Sequence record: JN673056
Source: Escherichia phage PhaxI
Length of the DNA: 64,000 nucleotides
Direction: 5' to 3' (one strand)
Shown: positions 8,914 through 54,832 of the stretch, one piece after another
Layout of the letters: every line of letters begins with the position of its first letter
Position numbering within the stretch: position 1 is the first letter of the stretch
Program-made: the position numbers and the translations under genes
Notes under the pieces: model-generated
What the model was told of the DNA's origin: nothing
What the model saw: the letters and a program-made list of their open reading frames with translations, nothing else
The model's database searches: none

Positions 8914-8921
8914 TATAAATA
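8914..8921 (+). promoter_or_regulatory. T4-type late promoter motif TATAAATA
   Basis: Exact TATAAATA about 35 nt upstream of the GTG start at 8956, in a divergent intergenic region. Confidence 0.5.
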
Positions 8922-13710: not shown

Positions 13711-13718
13711 TATAAATA
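13711..13718 (+). promoter_or_regulatory. T4-type late promoter motif TATAAATA
   Basis: Exact TATAAATA 29 nt upstream of ATG 13747; GGAGA RBS at 13736-13740. Confidence 0.5.
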
Positions 13719-44675: not shown

Positions 44676-45125
44676 TCAGAAACGGGTATCGCTGACCGTT
44701 CTGTATCGCACACCCTGAAACTGTTTAGCGAGTTTAACAAATTCCATCGCTGGCAAATCAACTTTGTAGACCTTCATGCGCTGTTTGCCGTCCATGTTCA
44801 ACGCAGCGACAAATCGGTGAGACCCGTCAACAACGTAATTGTCAGAAGACACCCAAACTCGACCCATGGGCTTCTTATTTCTGATCTGCTTCATAATCTT
44901 CCAGACCTTCATTTTATTGATTTCGTTCTGGGTAAGACGAAGCATTTTGATGGGCACTTGCGCAGCATCTATGGACACGCCGTTGTCTTCAAGATATTTG
45001 TGAAAATCTTCTTGTTTGTCGGCATCGATTTGCGGCATAGAAGAACGAGAAAGCCCGAGGTTCCCAACAGGAATCCTCAGGCCATTTATGATATTCATCC
45101 AGTCAATAAAGGATGTAAGGAACAT
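44676..45125 (-). CDS. ParB-like nuclease domain protein
   Basis: YVVDGSHRFVAA matches the ParB/Srx-fold GxHR motif; 149 aa. Confidence 0.5.
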   Translation of the reverse strand: MFLTSFIDWMNIINGLRIPVGNLGLSRSSMPQIDADKQEDFHKYLEDNGVSIDAAQVPIKMLRLTQNEINKMKVWKIMKQIRNKKPMGRVWVSSDNYVVDGSHRFVAALNMDGKQRMKVYKVDLPAMEFVKLAKQFQGVRYRTVSDTRF

Positions 45126-45493: not shown

Positions 45494-46000
45494 TTATAGG
45501 GTAACAAGTGATACGGTAAAAACCATCGTCCCATCTGTTGTCATTTTTCTTGAAACTGGGAAGACGCGAGGCTGACAGAATATCCATTCTTTCTCCATGG
45601 ACGCCAAGTCCAGCATATCCATTTCTGATTCATCGCCTTTGTTCACAAATTTTTCTAGAGAACCAAAGACATTAAGCCCCTCTGGGAGTCCGTTTCGATG
45701 TTTATAACAAATGCGGGCAACAGCTTTGGTTCCATACGATTTAGAAAATTGTTTGGCCACATGCTTCAGTTCGCTGAAACTAAGACAAGAATCCCATGTC
45801 TGAAACATGTCTCCTCGTTCAAACATCATCTCCAAACGCGCAACGTCCTCTTTAGGCAACCCGCGATAAAGTGTGGTCATCTGCGGTTCGCGTAATTCTT
45901 GCACCAGACCACGGATGGCAGGGGAAACAGTGCCAGGGCGCATGATGTGGGACTTATCATGGACGAGGTAAAATAAATCTTGAATTTGTTGATCGGTCAT
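45494..46000 (-). CDS. Hypothetical protein
   Basis: 168 aa; preceded by a second copy of the same cassette. Confidence 0.45.
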   Translation of the reverse strand: MTDQQIQDLFYLVHDKSHIMRPGTVSPAIRGLVQELREPQMTTLYRGLPKEDVARLEMMFERGDMFQTWDSCLSFSELKHVAKQFSKSYGTKAVARICYKHRNGLPEGLNVFGSLEKFVNKGDESEMDMLDLASMEKEWIFCQPRVFPVSRKMTTDGTMVFTVSLVTL

Positions 46001-46412: not shown

Positions 46413-46745
46413 TTACTTGCGCAGGGCAACCACGTATTCGGCAAGTTCACCCATGGTCGGGTCGTCGCCTTTACCGCCCAGCCAGCCATCAGAGATCTCG
46501 ACATTGAACTCTTCTTCTAGTTCCATGACGATTTCGATGGCATCAAGATCGTCGCCGCCGAGGTCTTTCTTGGTGCGGAGGCCAGCCAGTTTATCCAGGG
46601 CGTCATTCATAATCACTTCCGCGTCGACGATGCCTTTGATGCTGCTCTTGTCTTCGTCACTGACTTCCAGGTTCAGATTGTCAGTGGCGTACTGAGCCAG
46701 GTGACGCATTACTTCAACATAAGTTGGTTTGTTTGACATAAGCAT
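46413..46745 (-). CDS. Acyl-carrier-protein-like acidic protein with Asp in place of the phosphopantetheine-attachment Ser
   Basis: DLGGDDLDAIEIVMELEEEFNVEISD versus canonical ACP [26 protein letters not shown]. Confidence 0.5.
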   Translation of the reverse strand: MLMSNKPTYVEVMRHLAQYATDNLNLEVSDEDKSSIKGIVDAEVIMNDALDKLAGLRTKKDLGGDDLDAIEIVMELEEEFNVEISDGWLGGKGDDPTMGELAEYVVALRK

Positions 46746-46758
46746 ATCTCAAAATGAA

Positions 46759-46774
46759 GGCGGGTTTCCCCGCC
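46759..46774 (-). terminator. Stem-loop between the vWA gene and the ACP-like gene
   Basis: GGCGGGtttcCCCGCC. Confidence 0.45.
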
Positions 46775-46782
46775 AGTTGAAT

Positions 46783-48999
46783 TTAGATTTTGACTTCTTT
46801 TTCAGCCAGTTCGGCAGTGACGGTGTATTTCACCCCATCAACGTCCACATCCATAGTGGATTCTTCCAAATCCAGGTCGGTAAACCAACCATGGCCTGCA
46901 ACAATCCCATAAACTACCTTGGACAGCGTTTTGTTCAGAGATCGAACTTCGTTGATAGCTGCTTTTGCTGCATCACCAATCCAACTTTCGATCAGCTTTT
47001 TCTGAGTCTCTTCCGGTACGCTGGTGATCATCGGCGATTTAACAAACGCATTGTATTCGGCCAGGGCATTAGCGATCAGCTGATCAGCGACATTCAGTTT
47101 TTTACCGTCCGTCTGTTTTTTGATAACAGACGCGATGCTCGGCAGTGAAGATGCGCCTTTGATTTTCACATTCAATTCACGACTCATATAGACATCGGTT
47201 GATTCTACAGAAGAAGTCTTCGGTGAAAATCCATAGTCGCGAATGCCGTTTGCTGACAGGAAATCAGCCGCTTCTTTGCCATATTTTGAAGCCAGACCCG
47301 TAGCGTTGCCTTTTCCAACCAGTTCATCACGGTAGAATTTCAGAACTTTCTGTTTTGCCTTCAATGCTTCACGGCGCACATTGTCTGCAAAGAATTCAGC
47401 AGCACTGATATTCTTTGTCATGGCGCGGTTAACCATTGGGACACTTTCCAGATTTACAATGAAGACTTCCGGCCCACCAAACACATGAACACCCATGGCA
47501 GTCAAATCCTGTGCCACCTTAGCCCGAACAATCGGAGAATCTGCAGTGATAGGCATTGTTTTCAGGTTGATGATACCATCCTTGACAATGGTGTAATTGC
47601 GATAACGCCATGTATCCAGCTCTTCAGGAAGTTCATATTTCTTCTGTACAAACTCGGGCACAACAACCGTCCCGTGTTGAACTGTCTGCACACTGATGTT
47701 AGGACGTTCTGAATTATAGACCAAATTGCTGATCGGGACAATCCCTTTATCATCTGCTGGATTGAATTCCGGCGTCCAATCTTCGTGCTCGGCCAGTTTG
47801 AGCGCCAGGGCTTTACGCTCTTCTTTAGAAGTCGCATTCGCAATCTCTTCGGCCAACTTGTCTTCGGTGTCGTCAACTTTTTGTATAGTACCGCGCCCAA
47901 TGCTCTTGTAAGAGAATAGCGGATGCTTGGTGACGATAGAGACATCTGCTTCAGCCAAATACGTCAGAACATCAACAATGGTGGTGGCGTCTTCAGCCGG
48001 AACCATATTATAATCGATGCCATCAACTCCTCGCAGAGATTCGTCTACGATAGCCTGAGTCAGATCGACTTTGATGTTGGAGTAATCCTGCTTGGTGAAA
48101 CAGTTGCTGTATTGTTTGATGAAGCGGACGTCACCCGTTTTCTTCAGCGCAGCCCAAACCAAATCTGCGTCCATGGTATACACGCCGTAAAATGCCAGCA
48201 CGTATGCCGCTTGGATGTCTGCCAGATTATCCAGCTGGTCGATCATGTTGGGGTTTACAACCCACAGCTGAGAAACGCTTTCAGGGATGCTGACGTGGCC
48301 AATAGGGTGCTCTTCATCAGGATGCACAGCTAAAACAGTCGCCACGCCATTTTCAACATAAATGGCATGGGTGTAAACCAGGGGAACATCGACCACCACT
48401 TTCGGTGAAGAAGTTTTTAGCACGTTTTCCAATTCGGTCTGATATTCATTCTGGCCTTCGGCGAATACGTGGGTCGCACCAGAACGTTCTGCCATTAGCG
48501 CCAGCAGTTCGCGATTACAATACCAACCGTATTCGATGAAGGTAATGTTATCAAACGCTTTGGGCAGTACTTCAGCGGCATCCAGGATTTCATTAGAGCG
48601 CCAGCAGTTGTCATATCCGTCGGTCATGAACGCCAGGTTATTGACATAACCAGGTTTGTTCAGGCTCATCGCGGTTTCAGCAGCCAACTTCAGAGGTTCT
48701 ACAAATCCCGTACAACCTGACGGTTGCAGGAAGCGGTCAATCAGTTTATTGATTTCACTGAGATCGGTCGCGCTATTGATCTGACGGCCAGCGAATACCG
48801 TACCGAAATCACCACGGGATGAAAAGTAAAGAATGCTGACGGTATCTTCTGGTTTAACCAGAGACGGGAGATTTTCCTTCAGATGCTTACGGACTTCTGG
48901 AAGTGAAAGATACATGGACCGGGAGATATCCACAACGATTACATGGTTAGACGGTGCGACGGTCGCAACCGCATTCTTAAATGTTAATGATTCAATCAT
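46783..48999 (-). CDS. von Willebrand factor A (vWA) domain protein, ~740 aa
   Basis: N-terminal MIDAS-like HVIVVDISRSMY (DxSxS) plus downstream T and D positions; rest unassigned; start set at MIESLTF (GAAGGT RBS; the track ORF starts at 49035). Confidence 0.6.
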   Translation of the reverse strand: MIESLTFKNAVATVAPSNHVIVVDISRSMYLSLPEVRKHLKENLPSLVKPEDTVSILYFSSRGDFGTVFAGRQINSATDLSEINKLIDRFLQPSGCTGFVEPLKLAAETAMSLNKPGYVNNLAFMTDGYDNCWRSNEILDAAEVLPKAFDNITFIEYGWYCNRELLALMAERSGATHVFAEGQNEYQTELENVLKTSSPKVVVDVPLVYTHAIYVENGVATVLAVHPDEEHPIGHVSIPESVSQLWVVNPNMIDQLDNLADIQAAYVLAFYGVYTMDADLVWAALKKTGDVRFIKQYSNCFTKQDYSNIKVDLTQAIVDESLRGVDGIDYNMVPAEDATTIVDVLTYLAEADVSIVTKHPLFSYKSIGRGTIQKVDDTEDKLAEEIANATSKEERKALALKLAEHEDWTPEFNPADDKGIVPISNLVYNSERPNISVQTVQHGTVVVPEFVQKKYELPEELDTWRYRNYTIVKDGIINLKTMPITADSPIVRAKVAQDLTAMGVHVFGGPEVFIVNLESVPMVNRAMTKNISAAEFFADNVRREALKAKQKVLKFYRDELVGKGNATGLASKYGKEAADFLSANGIRDYGFSPKTSSVESTDVYMSRELNVKIKGASSLPSIASVIKKQTDGKKLNVADQLIANALAEYNAFVKSPMITSVPEETQKKLIESWIGDAAKAAINEVRSLNKTLSKVVYGIVAGHGWFTDLDLEESTMDVDVDGVKYTVTAELAEKEVKI

Positions 49000-49266
49000 C
49001 GTTATTACCTTCTTTGGTGGTTTGAGCGGCTTCACCTTCCGGCTTTGCCAGCATGTGTTCTATGAATTCGCGATTAGTTTCAATCTGTTGGATTAAAACT
49101 TCGCTGGGTTTAAACTGTGAGTCAAGAGAGTCAACTCTTGAACGCAAAAATGGTTTGGGCAAAGTAATTTCCCTCGCTTTACAATTGGGCCATTATACCT
49201 TGGCTTGTTAATTGAAACGCCCAGCAATTTGCCGGACGTTATTGATTTTGAAAGACTTTTGAAGAA

Positions 49267-49992
49267 TTACAAGTATGACACCACGATGGCTCTATACAGC
49301 GCCCCCACGGAATCACCAGGTTGGGCTTTCGGATCTAACAAGAATTTCTTAACACGATCACAAGCTGCTTGGCGTTTGTCTTCTGACAGGTCACACCACG
49401 GATAATCCCCTGAAGCAGCATTACACGTTTTCGCCAAACGCAGGACAAGTTCAGAATTTAGATCTTCAGAAGTCATAAACGAGCGAAGATACGCTTCCAC
49501 CAAAGATCTTGCTTCACCATTACGCCGTTCGTTATAACGTTCATTATCGGTGCGAACAAATTCAACTCGACATCCCCGACTTGGATCCTTGGGATGACGA
49601 AACACGACGGATTGTCCTTTACCCTCAAGGAATTCAGAACCACCCATCTCATGTATCGCTTCCCTTTCTGACACATATTCATCAATGTTGATCTTAGCAT
49701 CTTTGGCGGACACATCGATGATCTGCTTTTCTACTATCGCGCGATATGCTTCCAGTTCCCATAGTTGAGAAAGGGTCTTTTCATAGGCCAGCTGCTTGCC
49801 TATTTCTTCATCGAAGTGGCAGGGGTCTACCGATGTGGAACTATTCTTACCCCACACAATGAACCCATTGTCCATCTTGAAATGGCATGTAATGACGCGG
49901 TGACCACCAACTTCACGGTCTTCATAAATCACTTCGGCGATGTGGGACTTTAGAAGTTCTGGAGTGAGTTTAATCCCTTCACGATTACCCAT
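49267..49992 (-). CDS. Hypothetical protein
   Basis: 241-aa ORF. Confidence 0.45.
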   Translation of the reverse strand: MGNREGIKLTPELLKSHIAEVIYEDREVGGHRVITCHFKMDNGFIVWGKNSSTSVDPCHFDEEIGKQLAYEKTLSQLWELEAYRAIVEKQIIDVSAKDAKINIDEYVSEREAIHEMGGSEFLEGKGQSVVFRHPKDPSRGCRVEFVRTDNERYNERRNGEARSLVEAYLRSFMTSEDLNSELVLRLAKTCNAASGDYPWCDLSEDKRQAACDRVKKFLLDPKAQPGDSVGALYRAIVVSYL

Positions 49993-50246: not shown

Positions 50247-50618
50247 CTATAGTTGGTTACACACAGATATTACTTTACGGCACGTGTCGATATCGAACAA
50301 GCCGATATGGCAATCGCGCTTCTTGATCCCCAGATTATGAGCCAGCCAGTTGTAAGCATCACTCCTGCTCCTCTGCCCACTTTTCCAGATAGGGTCAAAC
50401 GACCTATGAGCTTCCTGCTTAGCAGCACGGAGAGCGGCATTCGCCATCCTTCCCATAGGGGTCTTTCCATCACCATGTTTATGGCAACCGACTCGGGCGT
50501 CACATGGAGTGCACACCCAGAACTTCAGATTGCGGAGTTCAGGGCGGTGGGGGTATACAGCATCACCACTGACGTATTTGGCAGGAAGGCCGCAATAATC
50601 ACAGATGACAGGTTTCAT
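50247..50618 (-). CDS. Zinc-finger protein
   Basis: CDYCG...CTPCDARVGCH; start set at MKPVICDYCG because the upstream in-frame ATG lies inside a terminator hairpin. Confidence 0.45.
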   Translation of the reverse strand: MKPVICDYCGLPAKYVSGDAVYPHRPELRNLKFWVCTPCDARVGCHKHGDGKTPMGRMANAALRAAKQEAHRSFDPIWKSGQRSRSDAYNWLAHNLGIKKRDCHIGLFDIDTCRKVISVCNQL

Positions 50619-50635
50619 ATTCTTTGTCCAAAAGA

Positions 50636-50656
50636 AACCCCGCACACGGCGGGGTT
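50636..50656 (-). terminator. Rho-independent terminator
   Basis: aaCCCCGCacacgGCGGGGtt with a T-run on the minus strand. Confidence 0.5.
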
Positions 50657-51086: not shown

Positions 51087-53105
51087 TTAGAAAATGACTT
51101 TTACAGTACGGTTAAACGCGCCGGACACTTTGACGAACACGTGGTTGCGTTGCGTCGTCGAGAATCCCAGACCGGACAGTTGGTTTTCATTCGGCTGGAC
51201 TTTCATTTTACTACCCAACATTTCAAAAACCTTACGATGTTTATCCAGTTCCGGCTTCAGATATTCGTTGTAGAAACCACGAGTACCTTCAGGATTAGCA
51301 CAGCCTTCCAGGATGAAGAACACGTGCTTGTTGCCTGTCTGCTCGCCATCCCAATGGTTTGGTGAGTTCAGGACCAGCTGTACTTTCTGGAAGGTCGCAG
51401 TCTTGATACCCCAAACTTCTTTAGACTTATCAACATTAGCCAGTTCGGACTTAATGCCAACAACTTGTTTGTCTTTAACAGTCAAGATGACTGCGGTGAT
51501 ACGTCCCTGATCTTTCAGGCCAGGATGGCTGAAACGATGCGTTGCGCCTTTGTATTCTACTTCGACTTCAAACCCTTCGTCGATTTTTTCACGTTGATTG
51601 TAGTTGTGGATTTCGAAACGGTATTCACCATCGCGCAGCTTGCTTTCATCTGTAAAGATGATATTTTCCACCGGAGCGCGGTTTGGATCAATACCATCCA
51701 TACCGTTCATATCGATATCCAGATGGGCACCTGTCATAGAGCGGCGATCGCGGAAGTAAACGTGCTCCATGTTGTTGAACATATGCAGATCGAGGTCGTC
51801 GTTATTGTGCCACGCCAAGGAAACGCGCAGATACCCGTCAACTTTACCGCCAGCAGCCTTTACACGTTCTTTAATGGAATCGGTCACTTCACCGTTGTAA
51901 GACCAGGAGAACCCGTTGTTCCACTTGAACAGGTTAGGCGCATCTGGGTTCGCCGGAGCAACCAGGGACATCAGGTTGCTAGTATGAGAATTCTCTACAA
52001 GCACTTCCATTGAATGCGCTTTTGGCAGAACATTGCTCAGGAAATCATCAACGCTGATCTCTTCAACTTTTTCCAGGGACTTGGTCGGAGTTTTCACTTC
52101 GGCGGCCAGCTGTGCAAACGGATCCATCGCTTTCTGAGCAGCCAGATCTGCGAACAGAACGTTGTTGATTGTCAGATCATCGTAAACCGCATAACGACGC
52201 GCCAGTGAGTCTTCCAAACCCAGAGCAATAACTTCTTTCTGAGCGTTTTCGATCATGGATTTTGAAACCAGCGCTGTCGGACGTTTGTAGTTCGCCGGAG
52301 CAACTTTGGATTCAAACGATTTAACAGCCTTTTCCAGTTCCACGCCTTCACTGATATCTGTCAGCAGAGTGCCGATAACTGTGTTGCGGATGCCGTGTGG
52401 AACATGATTGTTTGAACGGTATCCAGTATGCCATGCCCAAAGAGAACGGGCTGATTCGGGGACTTGTTCATATGCCTTTTTGGTTTCAACAAATCCCTTC
52501 ACTGCTGCTTTGTGTTCTGCGCCGCGATACAGAGAATTCTGGTCAATCAGTTCCAGAACGATTTCAGCTGATTCCAGAGTAATTTCACGCAGACCGCGTT
52601 CAAACAATTCAATAGCCTGGCGGATTTCACCTTTTTTCGAAGCGATTGCGTCCGGACGCAGAACATAGCTACCAAGTAATTGGGTATGGAAATGATTGTA
52701 AGTACGGATTTTGCCATCTTCACCAGATTCGTGATTGTGAGACAGGCCGACTTTGGCAGAATCGTTAAAATAAACATCGACGATTGCGTGTTGTTTGACA
52801 TACGCGGAAAGAGCCGCAGCCACCACGTCATATTCATTACCCAGATCAATGTTGTCCCAGATAGAAATTACGTTCAGTTCTGAATCGATGGTGACAACAC
52901 CGCCGATGTTACGGATGAATTGTTTACAGCAGGTGCAATCGTGTTCAGTACGTTCGCGGTACAGCGGGTTAGTACCAGCAGGGAAAGATGCCAGATACAG
53001 ATCCCAAAGAGCATCTTTATCGATATTGGTCATGAACAGACCAGTTGCGGACATCGCCAGCACGTTGTTATTAACTGCCGTTGCGAAGGGTTTGAATTCT
53101 GCCAT
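51087..53105 (-). CDS. Large hypothetical protein (672 aa)
   Basis: Long ORF; N-terminal HDCTCC; a KVDGYLR tract noted but not assignable to a family. Confidence 0.55.
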   Translation of the reverse strand: MAEFKPFATAVNNNVLAMSATGLFMTNIDKDALWDLYLASFPAGTNPLYRERTEHDCTCCKQFIRNIGGVVTIDSELNVISIWDNIDLGNEYDVVAAALSAYVKQHAIVDVYFNDSAKVGLSHNHESGEDGKIRTYNHFHTQLLGSYVLRPDAIASKKGEIRQAIELFERGLREITLESAEIVLELIDQNSLYRGAEHKAAVKGFVETKKAYEQVPESARSLWAWHTGYRSNNHVPHGIRNTVIGTLLTDISEGVELEKAVKSFESKVAPANYKRPTALVSKSMIENAQKEVIALGLEDSLARRYAVYDDLTINNVLFADLAAQKAMDPFAQLAAEVKTPTKSLEKVEEISVDDFLSNVLPKAHSMEVLVENSHTSNLMSLVAPANPDAPNLFKWNNGFSWSYNGEVTDSIKERVKAAGGKVDGYLRVSLAWHNNDDLDLHMFNNMEHVYFRDRRSMTGAHLDIDMNGMDGIDPNRAPVENIIFTDESKLRDGEYRFEIHNYNQREKIDEGFEVEVEYKGATHRFSHPGLKDQGRITAVILTVKDKQVVGIKSELANVDKSKEVWGIKTATFQKVQLVLNSPNHWDGEQTGNKHVFFILEGCANPEGTRGFYNEYLKPELDKHRKVFEMLGSKMKVQPNENQLSGLGFSTTQRNHVFVKVSGAFNRTVKVIF

Positions 53106-53201: not shown

Positions 53202-53609
53202 TTAAACGGGAATCATGTTTACTCGAATACTTCTGAACTGTTTCCCGTCATAACTGGTGTAACCAACAACCGTAACTGATCTTGTTCCCTTTGGATAACC
53301 CTTTGGAGTACTCACAACGCGCACAGGGCGCTTGCTTTCTTTATCGTATTTCGAAATCAATTTCAAAAGATGTTTATCGATCTGGCTTAAACTATCACCA
53401 TACACGGTATATTGATATTGCTCGCAATTACCCAACAAAATGATAAATTTATAAATTTTGTCGACCAAAGATCGACATTTTGGATCATCATAATGATGCC
53501 GACAGACTTGACATTCATATTTCCCAGTATTCATGTTGAACAATTTTGTCGCCCGACTTGAACACGCTGGGCATACTTTCCATGAACGATGATGTTTTAC
53601 GGGTTTCAT
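53202..53609 (-). CDS. Zinc-ribbon protein
   Basis: CPACSS...CQVCRH (two CxxC pairs); 135 aa. Confidence 0.45.
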   Translation of the reverse strand: MKPVKHHRSWKVCPACSSRATKLFNMNTGKYECQVCRHHYDDPKCRSLVDKIYKFIILLGNCEQYQYTVYGDSLSQIDKHLLKLISKYDKESKRPVRVVSTPKGYPKGTRSVTVVGYTSYDGKQFRSIRVNMIPV

Positions 53610-54832
53610 TTTTTCATCTTCTCTAACAGATTAATAGAACGAACGGGAGTCTTCTGTAATGGCTGATTAACTTCACCACCATTATACCCCACCTTTCCTC
53701 GAGGTTTCTCCCCGCGCATCACCGCCTCAACGCAGCGGGTATATTTCTGAAGTTCACAGAACATGTTCTCCAACTGCATAACATTCATGCAACGGTCTTC
53801 CGGTTCTTCTGCCGACCAAAATTCATTACGTTTATACCCGTACTGAGCGAACAATTGATCTTGATGATCACGAACCCAGAATATGCATTCTTCATGCGTC
53901 ATGCCGTCCTTGTCCAAAAATAACAGATCGATACCAGCACGGCAACCTGGACCAGCGATAGTGAAGTGGTTTTCACTGAATGGATATTCATCGATGTATG
54001 TAAAATCAACCCAAATCTGGTATGCCAAGAATGGTCCAAGCCCCTCAATGTCGTCATACATCGCCTGGTAAACAGAGTCGGGACGGCTAAATTCCCTGAG
54101 GCGATCAAAGTAATGAGGGTGTTTGTTGACGAATGCCTTCAAAGAGCGGATGACTCGCATCGGCATGTATGGTTCCCAGCCTTCTATTTTGTATTCACCA
54201 GGATTATCTTCGGCCAGCTTCTTGGCAACCTTGTAATCCATTTCATCTATAACACCGCCAACCCGATGGACTTTTACCTTCATGCCGCCAAAGCGTTGCT
54301 CCTTGTGGTTGACAACTAGTTCAGGGAAAGCCAGGCATTGTTTCAGACCGCCTGTATTAAACGCATTGGTGAAAACTTTGCCACCTTTAGATTCGAATTC
54401 CTGAAGAACATCTCGACACCATTCAAGATTTATGTTTCCGAATTCTTCGATCGTCCATGGACCACCCAAAGCCTGTATAGGTTCCCACATGTTGTACATG
54501 CGGAACAATACACAGTTGAACATTTTGTCAGATAGCGTGAGATCCTGATCGAGGATGATATTATTGATCAAATTTCGAGACTGCCTATCGTGCTCTCTCC
54601 GGACGTTACAGAACTTGACCTGCCGTAGTATGGGATTATCCGTCCAAGGAGCAGGAAGACGCTGGACGTCCTTTCTCACGTGGATCTTATAACGCTCGCT
54701 CATCCATTCGTATGCGAGTTGTTTATGGAATGGGCTTAACATGGGATGTGCAGATTTAATTTTAACTTCCCGAACACCGCAATAAGGAATGTCACACGGT
54801 TTATCTTTCATGGTATCCTCTCTAGAATACAA
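53606..54832 (-). CDS. Hypothetical protein (408 aa)
   Basis: Long ORF with no recognised motif. Confidence 0.5.
   Translation of the reverse strand: MYSREDTMKDKPCDIPYCGVREVKIKSAHPMLSPFHKQLAYEWMSERYKIHVRKDVQRLPAPWTDNPILRQVKFCNVRREHDRQSRNLINNIILDQDLTLSDKMFNCVLFRMYNMWEPIQALGGPWTIEEFGNINLEWCRDVLQEFESKGGKVFTNAFNTGGLKQCLAFPELVVNHKEQRFGGMKVKVHRVGGVIDEMDYKVAKKLAEDNPGEYKIEGWEPYMPMRVIRSLKAFVNKHPHYFDRLREFSRPDSVYQAMYDDIEGLGPFLAYQIWVDFTYIDEYPFSENHFTIAGPGCRAGIDLLFLDKDGMTHEECIFWVRDHQDQLFAQYGYKRNEFWSAEEPEDRCMNVMQLENMFCELQKYTRCVEAVMRGEKPRGKVGYNGGEVNQPLQKTPVRSINLLEKMKK

Follow-up and report, generated by a model that had tools for sequence, protein, structure and literature searches.

Within the 64,000-nucleotide stretch of Escherichia phage PhaxI analysed here (record JN673056; the whole of this stretch is called the window), a minus-strand gene at 46783..48999 codes for a 738-residue protein of the von Willebrand A (vWA) superfamily. 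Sequence profiles and structure prediction identify its N-terminal third as an ArnB/Sec23-24/ITIH-type module with an intact MIDAS (an adhesion site dependent on metal ions), and its C-terminal 418 residues as a well-folded, family-specific module that is always joined to the vWA head. Analogy with proteins of the same fold makes a stand-alone metal-dependent protein-binding adaptor the best-supported mechanism, which is nevertheless proposed tentatively. The gene and the parts of its product are as follows:

46783..48999, minus strand: gene for the vWA-family protein, complete coding sequence, 738 codons plus stop, from the list of open reading frames (ORFs)
48412..48960, minus strand: vWA domain, Rossmann-like alpha/beta, residues ~14-196
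48916..48930, minus strand: MIDAS motif D24-I-S26-R-S28 (DxSxS), read directly and conserved in homologues
48709..48711, minus strand: MIDAS threonine T97, an invariant alignment column
48619..48621, minus strand: MIDAS aspartate D127 in the motif F-x-TDGYDN, an invariant alignment column
48250..48411, minus strand: beta-sandwich subdomain, residues 197-250, probably completed by an N-terminal strand (residues 4-6)
48040..48249, minus strand: helical bundle, residues 251-320, like the post-sandwich helical domain of ArnB and of the Catenulispora protein 4fx5
46786..48039, minus strand: family-specific C-terminal module, residues 321-738, alpha/beta in the predicted model

An earlier sequence-only reading had proposed a vWA domain from the peptide VVDISRSMY (residues 22-30), and this identification is confirmed far beyond chance. 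The protein is a member of the vWA superfamily by profile match, by a predicted Rossmann-like fold of ~180 residues and by a complete set of MIDAS positions. In an alignment of 44 homologues with identities down to 26%, D24, S26 and S28 are kept in at least 90% of the sequences and both T97 and D127 are invariant; the N-terminus of the family is not conserved. Pfam VWA_3 matches residues 20-174 of the PhaxI protein at 29.4 bits (E 9.4e-7), barely over the cut-off of 27, but the assignment is much firmer for the family than for this single protein because 41 of the 44 homologues match VWA_2 (VWA and VWA_3 are matched by 21 and 19, respectively). A family profile searched against PDB finds ITIH1 (E 1.7e-5), ArnB and the calcium-channel alpha2delta proteins, all through the vWA region.

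Structural comparison carries the likeness past the vWA domain, with these matches (structural score; aligned residues):

Catenulispora vWA protein 4fx5: 23.8; 289
ITIH1: 22.9; 273
ArnB 8s05: 22.4; 267
Sec24, Sec24C and Sec23A: 15-16; 278-309

The core common to the phage protein, ArnB, 4fx5, ITIH1 and Sec23/24 consists of a vWA domain, a beta-sandwich and then a helical domain. The sequence-only reading had left ~550 residues after the vWA motif without a recognisable domain; this description fails for about 125 of them (the sandwich at 197-250 and the bundle at 251-320, which complete an ArnB/Sec23-24-type core) and holds for the remaining 418. ArnB of Sulfolobus acidocaldarius (PDB 8s05 and 5a8j; paralogue ArnE/vWA2) resembles the phage N-terminal core at about 17% sequence identity, although it has 380 residues and stops after the helical bundle, where the phage protein adds its 418-residue module. 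No ArnB_C family appears among the Pfam matches of the vWA protein and its homologues. A 2026 paper likens the vWA, beta-sandwich and helical domains of ArnB to the Sec23/24 core, describes ArnB and Sec23/24 as protein-protein adaptors, and names the FHA/zinc-finger protein ArnA and kinases as ArnB partners (PMC12852372). ArnA and kinases apart, ArnB is characterised by a helical bundle that is phosphorylated. The ArnB partners have no evident counterpart for the phage protein: none of the proteins of the near-identical phage CBA120 is annotated as an FHA protein, though no search aimed at FHA was made, and CBA120 orf033 is a putative Ser/Thr phosphatase.

The other relatives differ from the phage protein in instructive ways. 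The Sec23/Sec24 COPII coat core (PDB 1m2v, 3eh2, 2nup) shares the core at 10-12% identity, but the phage protein has a complete MIDAS, lacks the N-terminal zinc finger of Sec23/24, and shows no detectable gelsolin-like domain in its C-terminal model. ITIH1 (PDB 6fpy) and 4fx5 are alike in the core, and the C-terminal part of the phage protein is different from both. ITIH proteins come from eukaryotes, are secreted and have a VIT domain, unlike the phage protein, which is intracellular. Ku70/80 and Ro60/TROVE were considered as closer relatives and rejected, as Ku and Ro60 are not among the 60 listed structural matches; an analogy with TFIIH p44 was also rejected, since p44/Ssl1 and Rpn10 match through the vWA domain only.

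The C-terminal 418 residues have no relatives detectable in PDB or among viral predicted structures, according to a model of residues 251-738 that was built separately (predicted local distance difference test score, pLDDT, 91.4; predicted template modelling score, pTM, 0.84). The best structural matches of this model span 50-130 residues and are the helical bundles of ArnB and 4fx5, together with coiled or helical proteins of a generic kind. A Foldseek search of viral predicted structures gave only four significant matches, of which two clearly belong to the family and two are uncharacterised proteins of phages. None of the Pfam, NCBIfam and PADLOC models consistently covers residues 321-738. 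A profile of these residues recovers only vWA-fused proteins of 670-800 residues and fragments of them, so that the architecture is fixed and domain fusions, examined as clues to C-terminal function, yield none. Conservation of the module is nonetheless equal to or greater than that of the vWA head, and its invariant residues are clustered in tight motifs: NSERPNIS (429-436), YRNYTIVKDGI (466-476), GIRDYGFSPK (585-594), GHGWF (702-706) and a terminal EKE[IV]KI.

This strong conservation, with invariant RPN at 432-434 and N468, D474 and G475 within YRNYTIVKDG, is also what would be expected if the module were a new enzyme, with nucleic acid, the cell envelope or a metabolite as its substrate, for example, and with the vWA head only targeting or regulating it. 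The presence in Kuttervirus of a 5-hydroxymethyl-dU DNA kinase gene no more than 5 kb away agrees with such a role. However, the module is unlike any enzyme fold or family and lacks a conserved His or Cys, and the inspected flanks in RB43-type phages, pf16 and PBS1 show no adjacent annotated hypermodification gene; an enzymatic module is judged decidedly improbable.

The family to which the protein belongs is large, fixed in architecture and essentially phage-only, being found almost wholly in large lytic myoviruses. An exhaustive profile search returned 1014 representatives of 50% identity clusters at E <=1e-30, and the best 150 of these are all 670-820 residues long and aligned end to end. 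PHROG 2426, whose function is listed as unknown, likewise matches the PhaxI protein from end to end (1260 bits). The 2217-bp gene is 97-98% identical in nucleotide sequence to about 100 Kuttervirus genomes (Ackermannviridae), including Salmonella phage Mutine, E. coli phage CBA120 and SJ3, and annotation tables identify it as the orthologue of CBA120 orf143/gp113 and ViI Vi01_123c. At the protein level many Kuttervirus members are 98-99% identical to it, LIMEstone1 ORF108 is 83% identical, RB43 ORF119c 48% and Thanatos-1 TH1_124 47%. Members occur in Ackermannviridae, in the RB43/Pseudotevenvirus, Slopekvirus and Karamvirus groups of T4-like phages, in Pseudomonas phage pf16 and Bacillus phage PBS1, and in Rhizobium Kleczkowskaviridae. 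It is thus correct that the gene is not part of the T4 core set, whereas rarity among T4-like phages is not upheld: the full-length family is present in RB43 (ORF119c), Slopekvirus and Karamvirus. Among cellular genomes (one each from 185,579 bacterial and archaeal species) there are only seven family loci, with uninformative neighbourhoods.

Some family members stand apart. A divergent member with 32% identity (P0100, L003 10001..12169) is found on metagenomic contigs of 0.29-1.36 Mb, surrounded by genes for ankyrin-repeat proteins, MBOAT, a ClpB-like ATPase, a T2SSE ATPase and RNase II, and its genome looks cellular (endosymbiont-like) or like that of a giant virus rather than a tailed phage. 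Another divergent member (P0111) lies on a 105-kb metagenomic phage contig with a 562-residue DUF7788 protein ~8 kb upstream (L006 586..2274); DUF7788 is presumably another vWA-related family, in which case this might be a second vWA-type protein beside P0111. Four shortened entries with 76-100% identity, P0031 (482 residues) and P0280, P0289 and P0290 (206-238 residues), suggest that the gene is split or interrupted in some genomes of Kuttervirus type, or that these entries are fragments left by assembly; one of the four carries a different Pfam domain, PF26675.

Whether the protein works with an ATPase is central to its interpretation, as bacterial vWA proteins are mostly understood as MoxR/chelatase ATPase partners or surface adhesins. 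The sequence-only reading recognised no MoxR- or CobS-type partner, and this absence extends well past the window. No MoxR/CobS/BchI-type ATPase is encoded in the 64 kb, and none of MoxR type was found across the CBA120 genome by annotation, by a Walker-A scan of all ORFs of at least 120 residues or by Pfam searches of large hypothetical proteins; the Walker-A matches are only helicases, PhoH, a small kinase-like ORF and similar proteins, and Pfam finds no AAA+ domain among the large hypothetical proteins. Nor is a MoxR-type gene adjacent to the homologues in RB43, pf16, PBS1, a Rhizobium phage or the metagenomic contexts. With no cognate MoxR-class ATPase found in the phage, this is not a MoxR/chelatase-type system. 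It might instead be the vWA half of a MoxR-type pair with a host AAA+ ATPase (for example RavA in enterobacteria), redirected to a substrate of the phage's choosing. ViaA, NorD, CobT and BchD, the partners of MoxR/CobS/BchI-type ATPases, are cytoplasmic prokaryotic vWA proteins, as the phage protein is, but their C-terminal architecture is unlike its own and they are not its nearest relatives in sequence or fold; the closest vWA relatives are of the ITIH, ArnB and alpha2delta types, not ViaA, NorD or CobT. Family hosts as varied as Bacillus, Rhizobium, Pseudomonas and Shewanella make a single host ATPase partner unlikely, and pairing with a host ATPase is considered highly improbable.

No other gene emerges as a general partner. 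The neighbourhoods of the homologues (RB43, pf16, PBS1, the Rhizobium phage and five other contexts, metagenomic or genomic) have nothing in common except that the gene is solitary, set among replication genes or small ORFs of early type. Three neighbours in the window were rejected as universal partners: a 672-residue protein (51087..53105), whose distribution among phages is unrelated (phiCbK, N4-like, rV5-like, Lu11); the adjacent acyl carrier protein (ACP), which is confined to Ackermannviridae and mosaic even there; and the small upstream ORF, which has no similarity to the small ORF 5' of the RB43 homologue. The PADLOC defence-system models gave no match to the vWA protein at E <=0.01.

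In the window, the vWA gene sits in a long leftward-transcribed block and is co-oriented with replication and recombination genes, with gp46/47, gp55, RNase H and helicase genes on one flank and regA, clamp loader, sliding clamp and UvsW genes on the other. The T4-type late-promoter octamer TATAAATA occurs exactly twice in the window, at 8914..8921 and 13711..13718, both on the plus strand and directly 5' of plus-strand tail-tube and baseplate-hub genes; a count of two is no more than the chance expectation (1.8), and it is the placement that is telling. Along the vWA strand, no copy is found within ~4.4 kb upstream of the gene even with one mismatch allowed. Promoter pattern and gene position therefore fit pre-late expression, and the placement of the gene among early genes by the sequence-only reading is plausible.

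Published mass spectrometry (MS) bears on a second possible site of action, the virion. LIMEstone1 ORF108, a 'vWa containing protein' of 81.06 kDa, is in the table of virion proteins with six unique peptides and 11.4% coverage, and Thanatos-1 TH1_124 was detected in purified virions and in polyethylene glycol precipitates; by these peptides the protein is certainly made. It could be a component of the virion present in low copy: a protein packaged in the head and, like T4 Alt and the internal proteins, ejected with the DNA to act on a host target as infection begins, or an accessory of the tail or baseplate. The coverage of ORF108 exceeds that of the four LIMEstone1 proteins flagged as unexpected by the authors (rIIB, ligase, PhoH and gp44, all <5%), two Klebsiella phage records label the homologue 'minor tail protein', and an Alt-like ADP-ribosyltransferase and a 149-residue ParB-like protein, with domains of the packaged type, are encoded nearby. 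Against this, the Thanatos virion preparation also contained DNA ligase, polynucleotide kinase and rII proteins, and its authors report contamination; the vWA protein is missing from the main-text and supplement MS tables of CsCl-purified virions of the Kuttervirus Sajous1; and in the ViI record Vi01_123c has no particle-associated label, unlike neighbouring genes. Moreover, the two exact late-promoter copies in the window precede structural genes and no such promoter is near the vWA gene, and there is no obvious capsid-targeting peptide because the N-terminus is not conserved. The orthologue's place among the LIMEstone1 virion proteins thus goes part of the way towards making this a known virion component, on evidence that is ambiguous, and a virion role is regarded as possible though unlikely.

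The adaptor mechanism is the best supported of these readings. The product (81.6 kDa) has a calculated isoelectric point of 5.0, near the family median of 5.3, and a net charge of -26, and no signal-like or membrane-spanning segment was found in its sequence; these properties speak against both a secreted adhesin and general DNA binding. The adaptor, soluble, acidic and cytoplasmic, would be made from the pre-late replication-gene transcription block of a ViI-like phage. By comparison with MIDAS-bearing vWA domains such as those of integrin I domains, ITIH and ArnB, its Mg2+-bound MIDAS would grip a protein ligand by an acidic or phosphorylated side chain, and the C-terminal module may offer another surface for binding or for an effector function. 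In infected cells, one specific protein of the host or the phage would then be tethered or sequestered, with no need of a phage-encoded MoxR/CobS-type AAA+ ATPase or a conserved neighbouring gene. Several points count against this proposal. First, the adaptor role depends on fold analogy. Second, the C-terminal fold is called from a predicted model, not a solved structure. Third, the conserved polar residues R432, N434, N468 and D474 could equally mark an active site. Fourth, the presence of orthologues in two virion preparations means that the protein could act from within the particle. A bolder proposal, considered improbable, is a phage-specific host-takeover or counter-defence factor: an ArnB/Sec23-24-like MIDAS clamp fused to a C-terminal fold without known counterpart, perhaps present at low copy in the virion and delivered with the DNA, would sequester or remodel a conserved bacterial protein without an ATPase. 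If true, vWA effectors that act alone would form a new class, common in large T4-like phages.

Three local sequence elements adjoin the vWA gene:

49008..49012, minus strand: ribosome-binding site GAAGG, 8 nt 5' of the ATG (at 48999), read directly from the sequence
48992..49162, minus strand: small upstream ORF of 56 residues (CBA120 orf145), its stop codon overlapping the start of the vWA gene, ATGATTGA
46759..46774, minus strand: G+C-rich hairpin GGCGGGGAAACCCGCC between the vWA stop codon and the ACP gene, from a pattern scan (consensus match only)

The overlap of the small-ORF stop with the vWA start (ATGATTGA) suggests translational coupling. Conservation of the small ORF is limited to Ackermannviridae, and a TATAAT hexamer lies 30 nt 5' of it, where a good -35 element is absent. 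The hairpin has a perfect 6-bp stem (GGCGGG-GAAA-CCCGCC) and scores as terminator-like in scans of both strands; it is terminator- or attenuator-like in sequence, and the LIMEstone1 record annotates a terminator at the equivalent place.

Neighbouring genes, all on the minus strand, display further features. Downstream, the ACP (46413..46745), which matches the PP-binding profile in part only (residues 61-105), is 100% identical to those of FEC14 and CBA6 and ~60-65% identical to many sampled Kuttervirus ACPs, whereas the flanking vWA gene is 95-99% identical across Kuttervirus; this contrast suggests allelic replacement or mosaicism at the ACP gene. Two short stand-alone proteins are encoded 1-2 kb downstream of the vWA gene: a 168-residue Alt-like ADP-ribosyltransferase domain (45494..46000), matching only positions 1270-1425 of a 1480-position PHROG, and the 149-residue ParB-like domain (44676..45125), matching internal parts of PHROG profiles of 740 and 3431 positions. 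Both domain types are typical of packaged or ejected phage proteins, and the ViI orthologue of the ParB-like protein is annotated 'phage associated protein'.

Upstream, the region between the vWA gene and the gene for the 672-residue protein varies in content among CBA120, ViI and SM5, and in the window it includes a DUF3268 zinc-finger protein (50247..50645; 131 bits) and an N4 gp49 / Sf6 gp66-family protein (49267..49992; 45 bits), the latter annotated 'RyR domain-containing' in phage SM5. The 672-residue protein itself (PHROG 1735) has no Pfam match and retains 40-50% identity across disparate phages, including phiCbK, the N4-like Pokken and Piffle, the rV5-like CR3, Lu11, a cyanophage and Bacillus phages. 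Records call it 'DNA-directed RNA polymerase', 'DUF2135 domain-containing' or hypothetical, and in ViI it is represented by two ORFs, Vi01_128c and Vi01_129c. Farther upstream, the gene at 53606..54832 corresponds to CBA120 orf156, annotated as hypothetical, and its match to Pfam HMUDK_hel (285 bits) makes it a 5-hydroxymethyl-dU DNA kinase. An amino acid:DNA transferase (ADDT, 195 bits) is encoded by CBA120 orf248, which lies outside the window. Both are proteins of the pathway by which ViI-like phages hypermodify thymidine, and the RefSeq record annotates neither. A direct link between this pathway and the vWA gene is unsupported by the RB43-type, pf16 and PBS1 flanks described above.

The LIMEstone1 annotation noted the vWA domain of this gene as early as 2012, many GenBank records note it too, and public records already name the family 'VWFA domain-containing protein'. 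The observation of a vWA domain in this conserved hypothetical protein was thus correct but already public, which limits its surprise. What is added here is a known core for about a quarter of the part that had been called unknown, 418 residues without detectable relatives in PDB or among viral predicted structures, a large and essentially phage-only family of fixed architecture and the genome-wide absence of an ATPase partner. No paper on the function of the family was found in the literature, and the pf16 paper is silent on the gene; a recent comparative paper classes the protein under 'virulence' solely from the domain name. The family, with more than 1000 clusters at 50% identity, joins an ArnB/Sec23-24-type core to a 418-residue module and has no ATPase partner, and the gene is carried by many of the Kuttervirus and Slopekvirus phages put forward for therapy and biocontrol. 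A specific host target, or genuine packaging, would make it more interesting. Identifying the target would clear the ambiguity in annotation and could reveal a new mechanism of host takeover.

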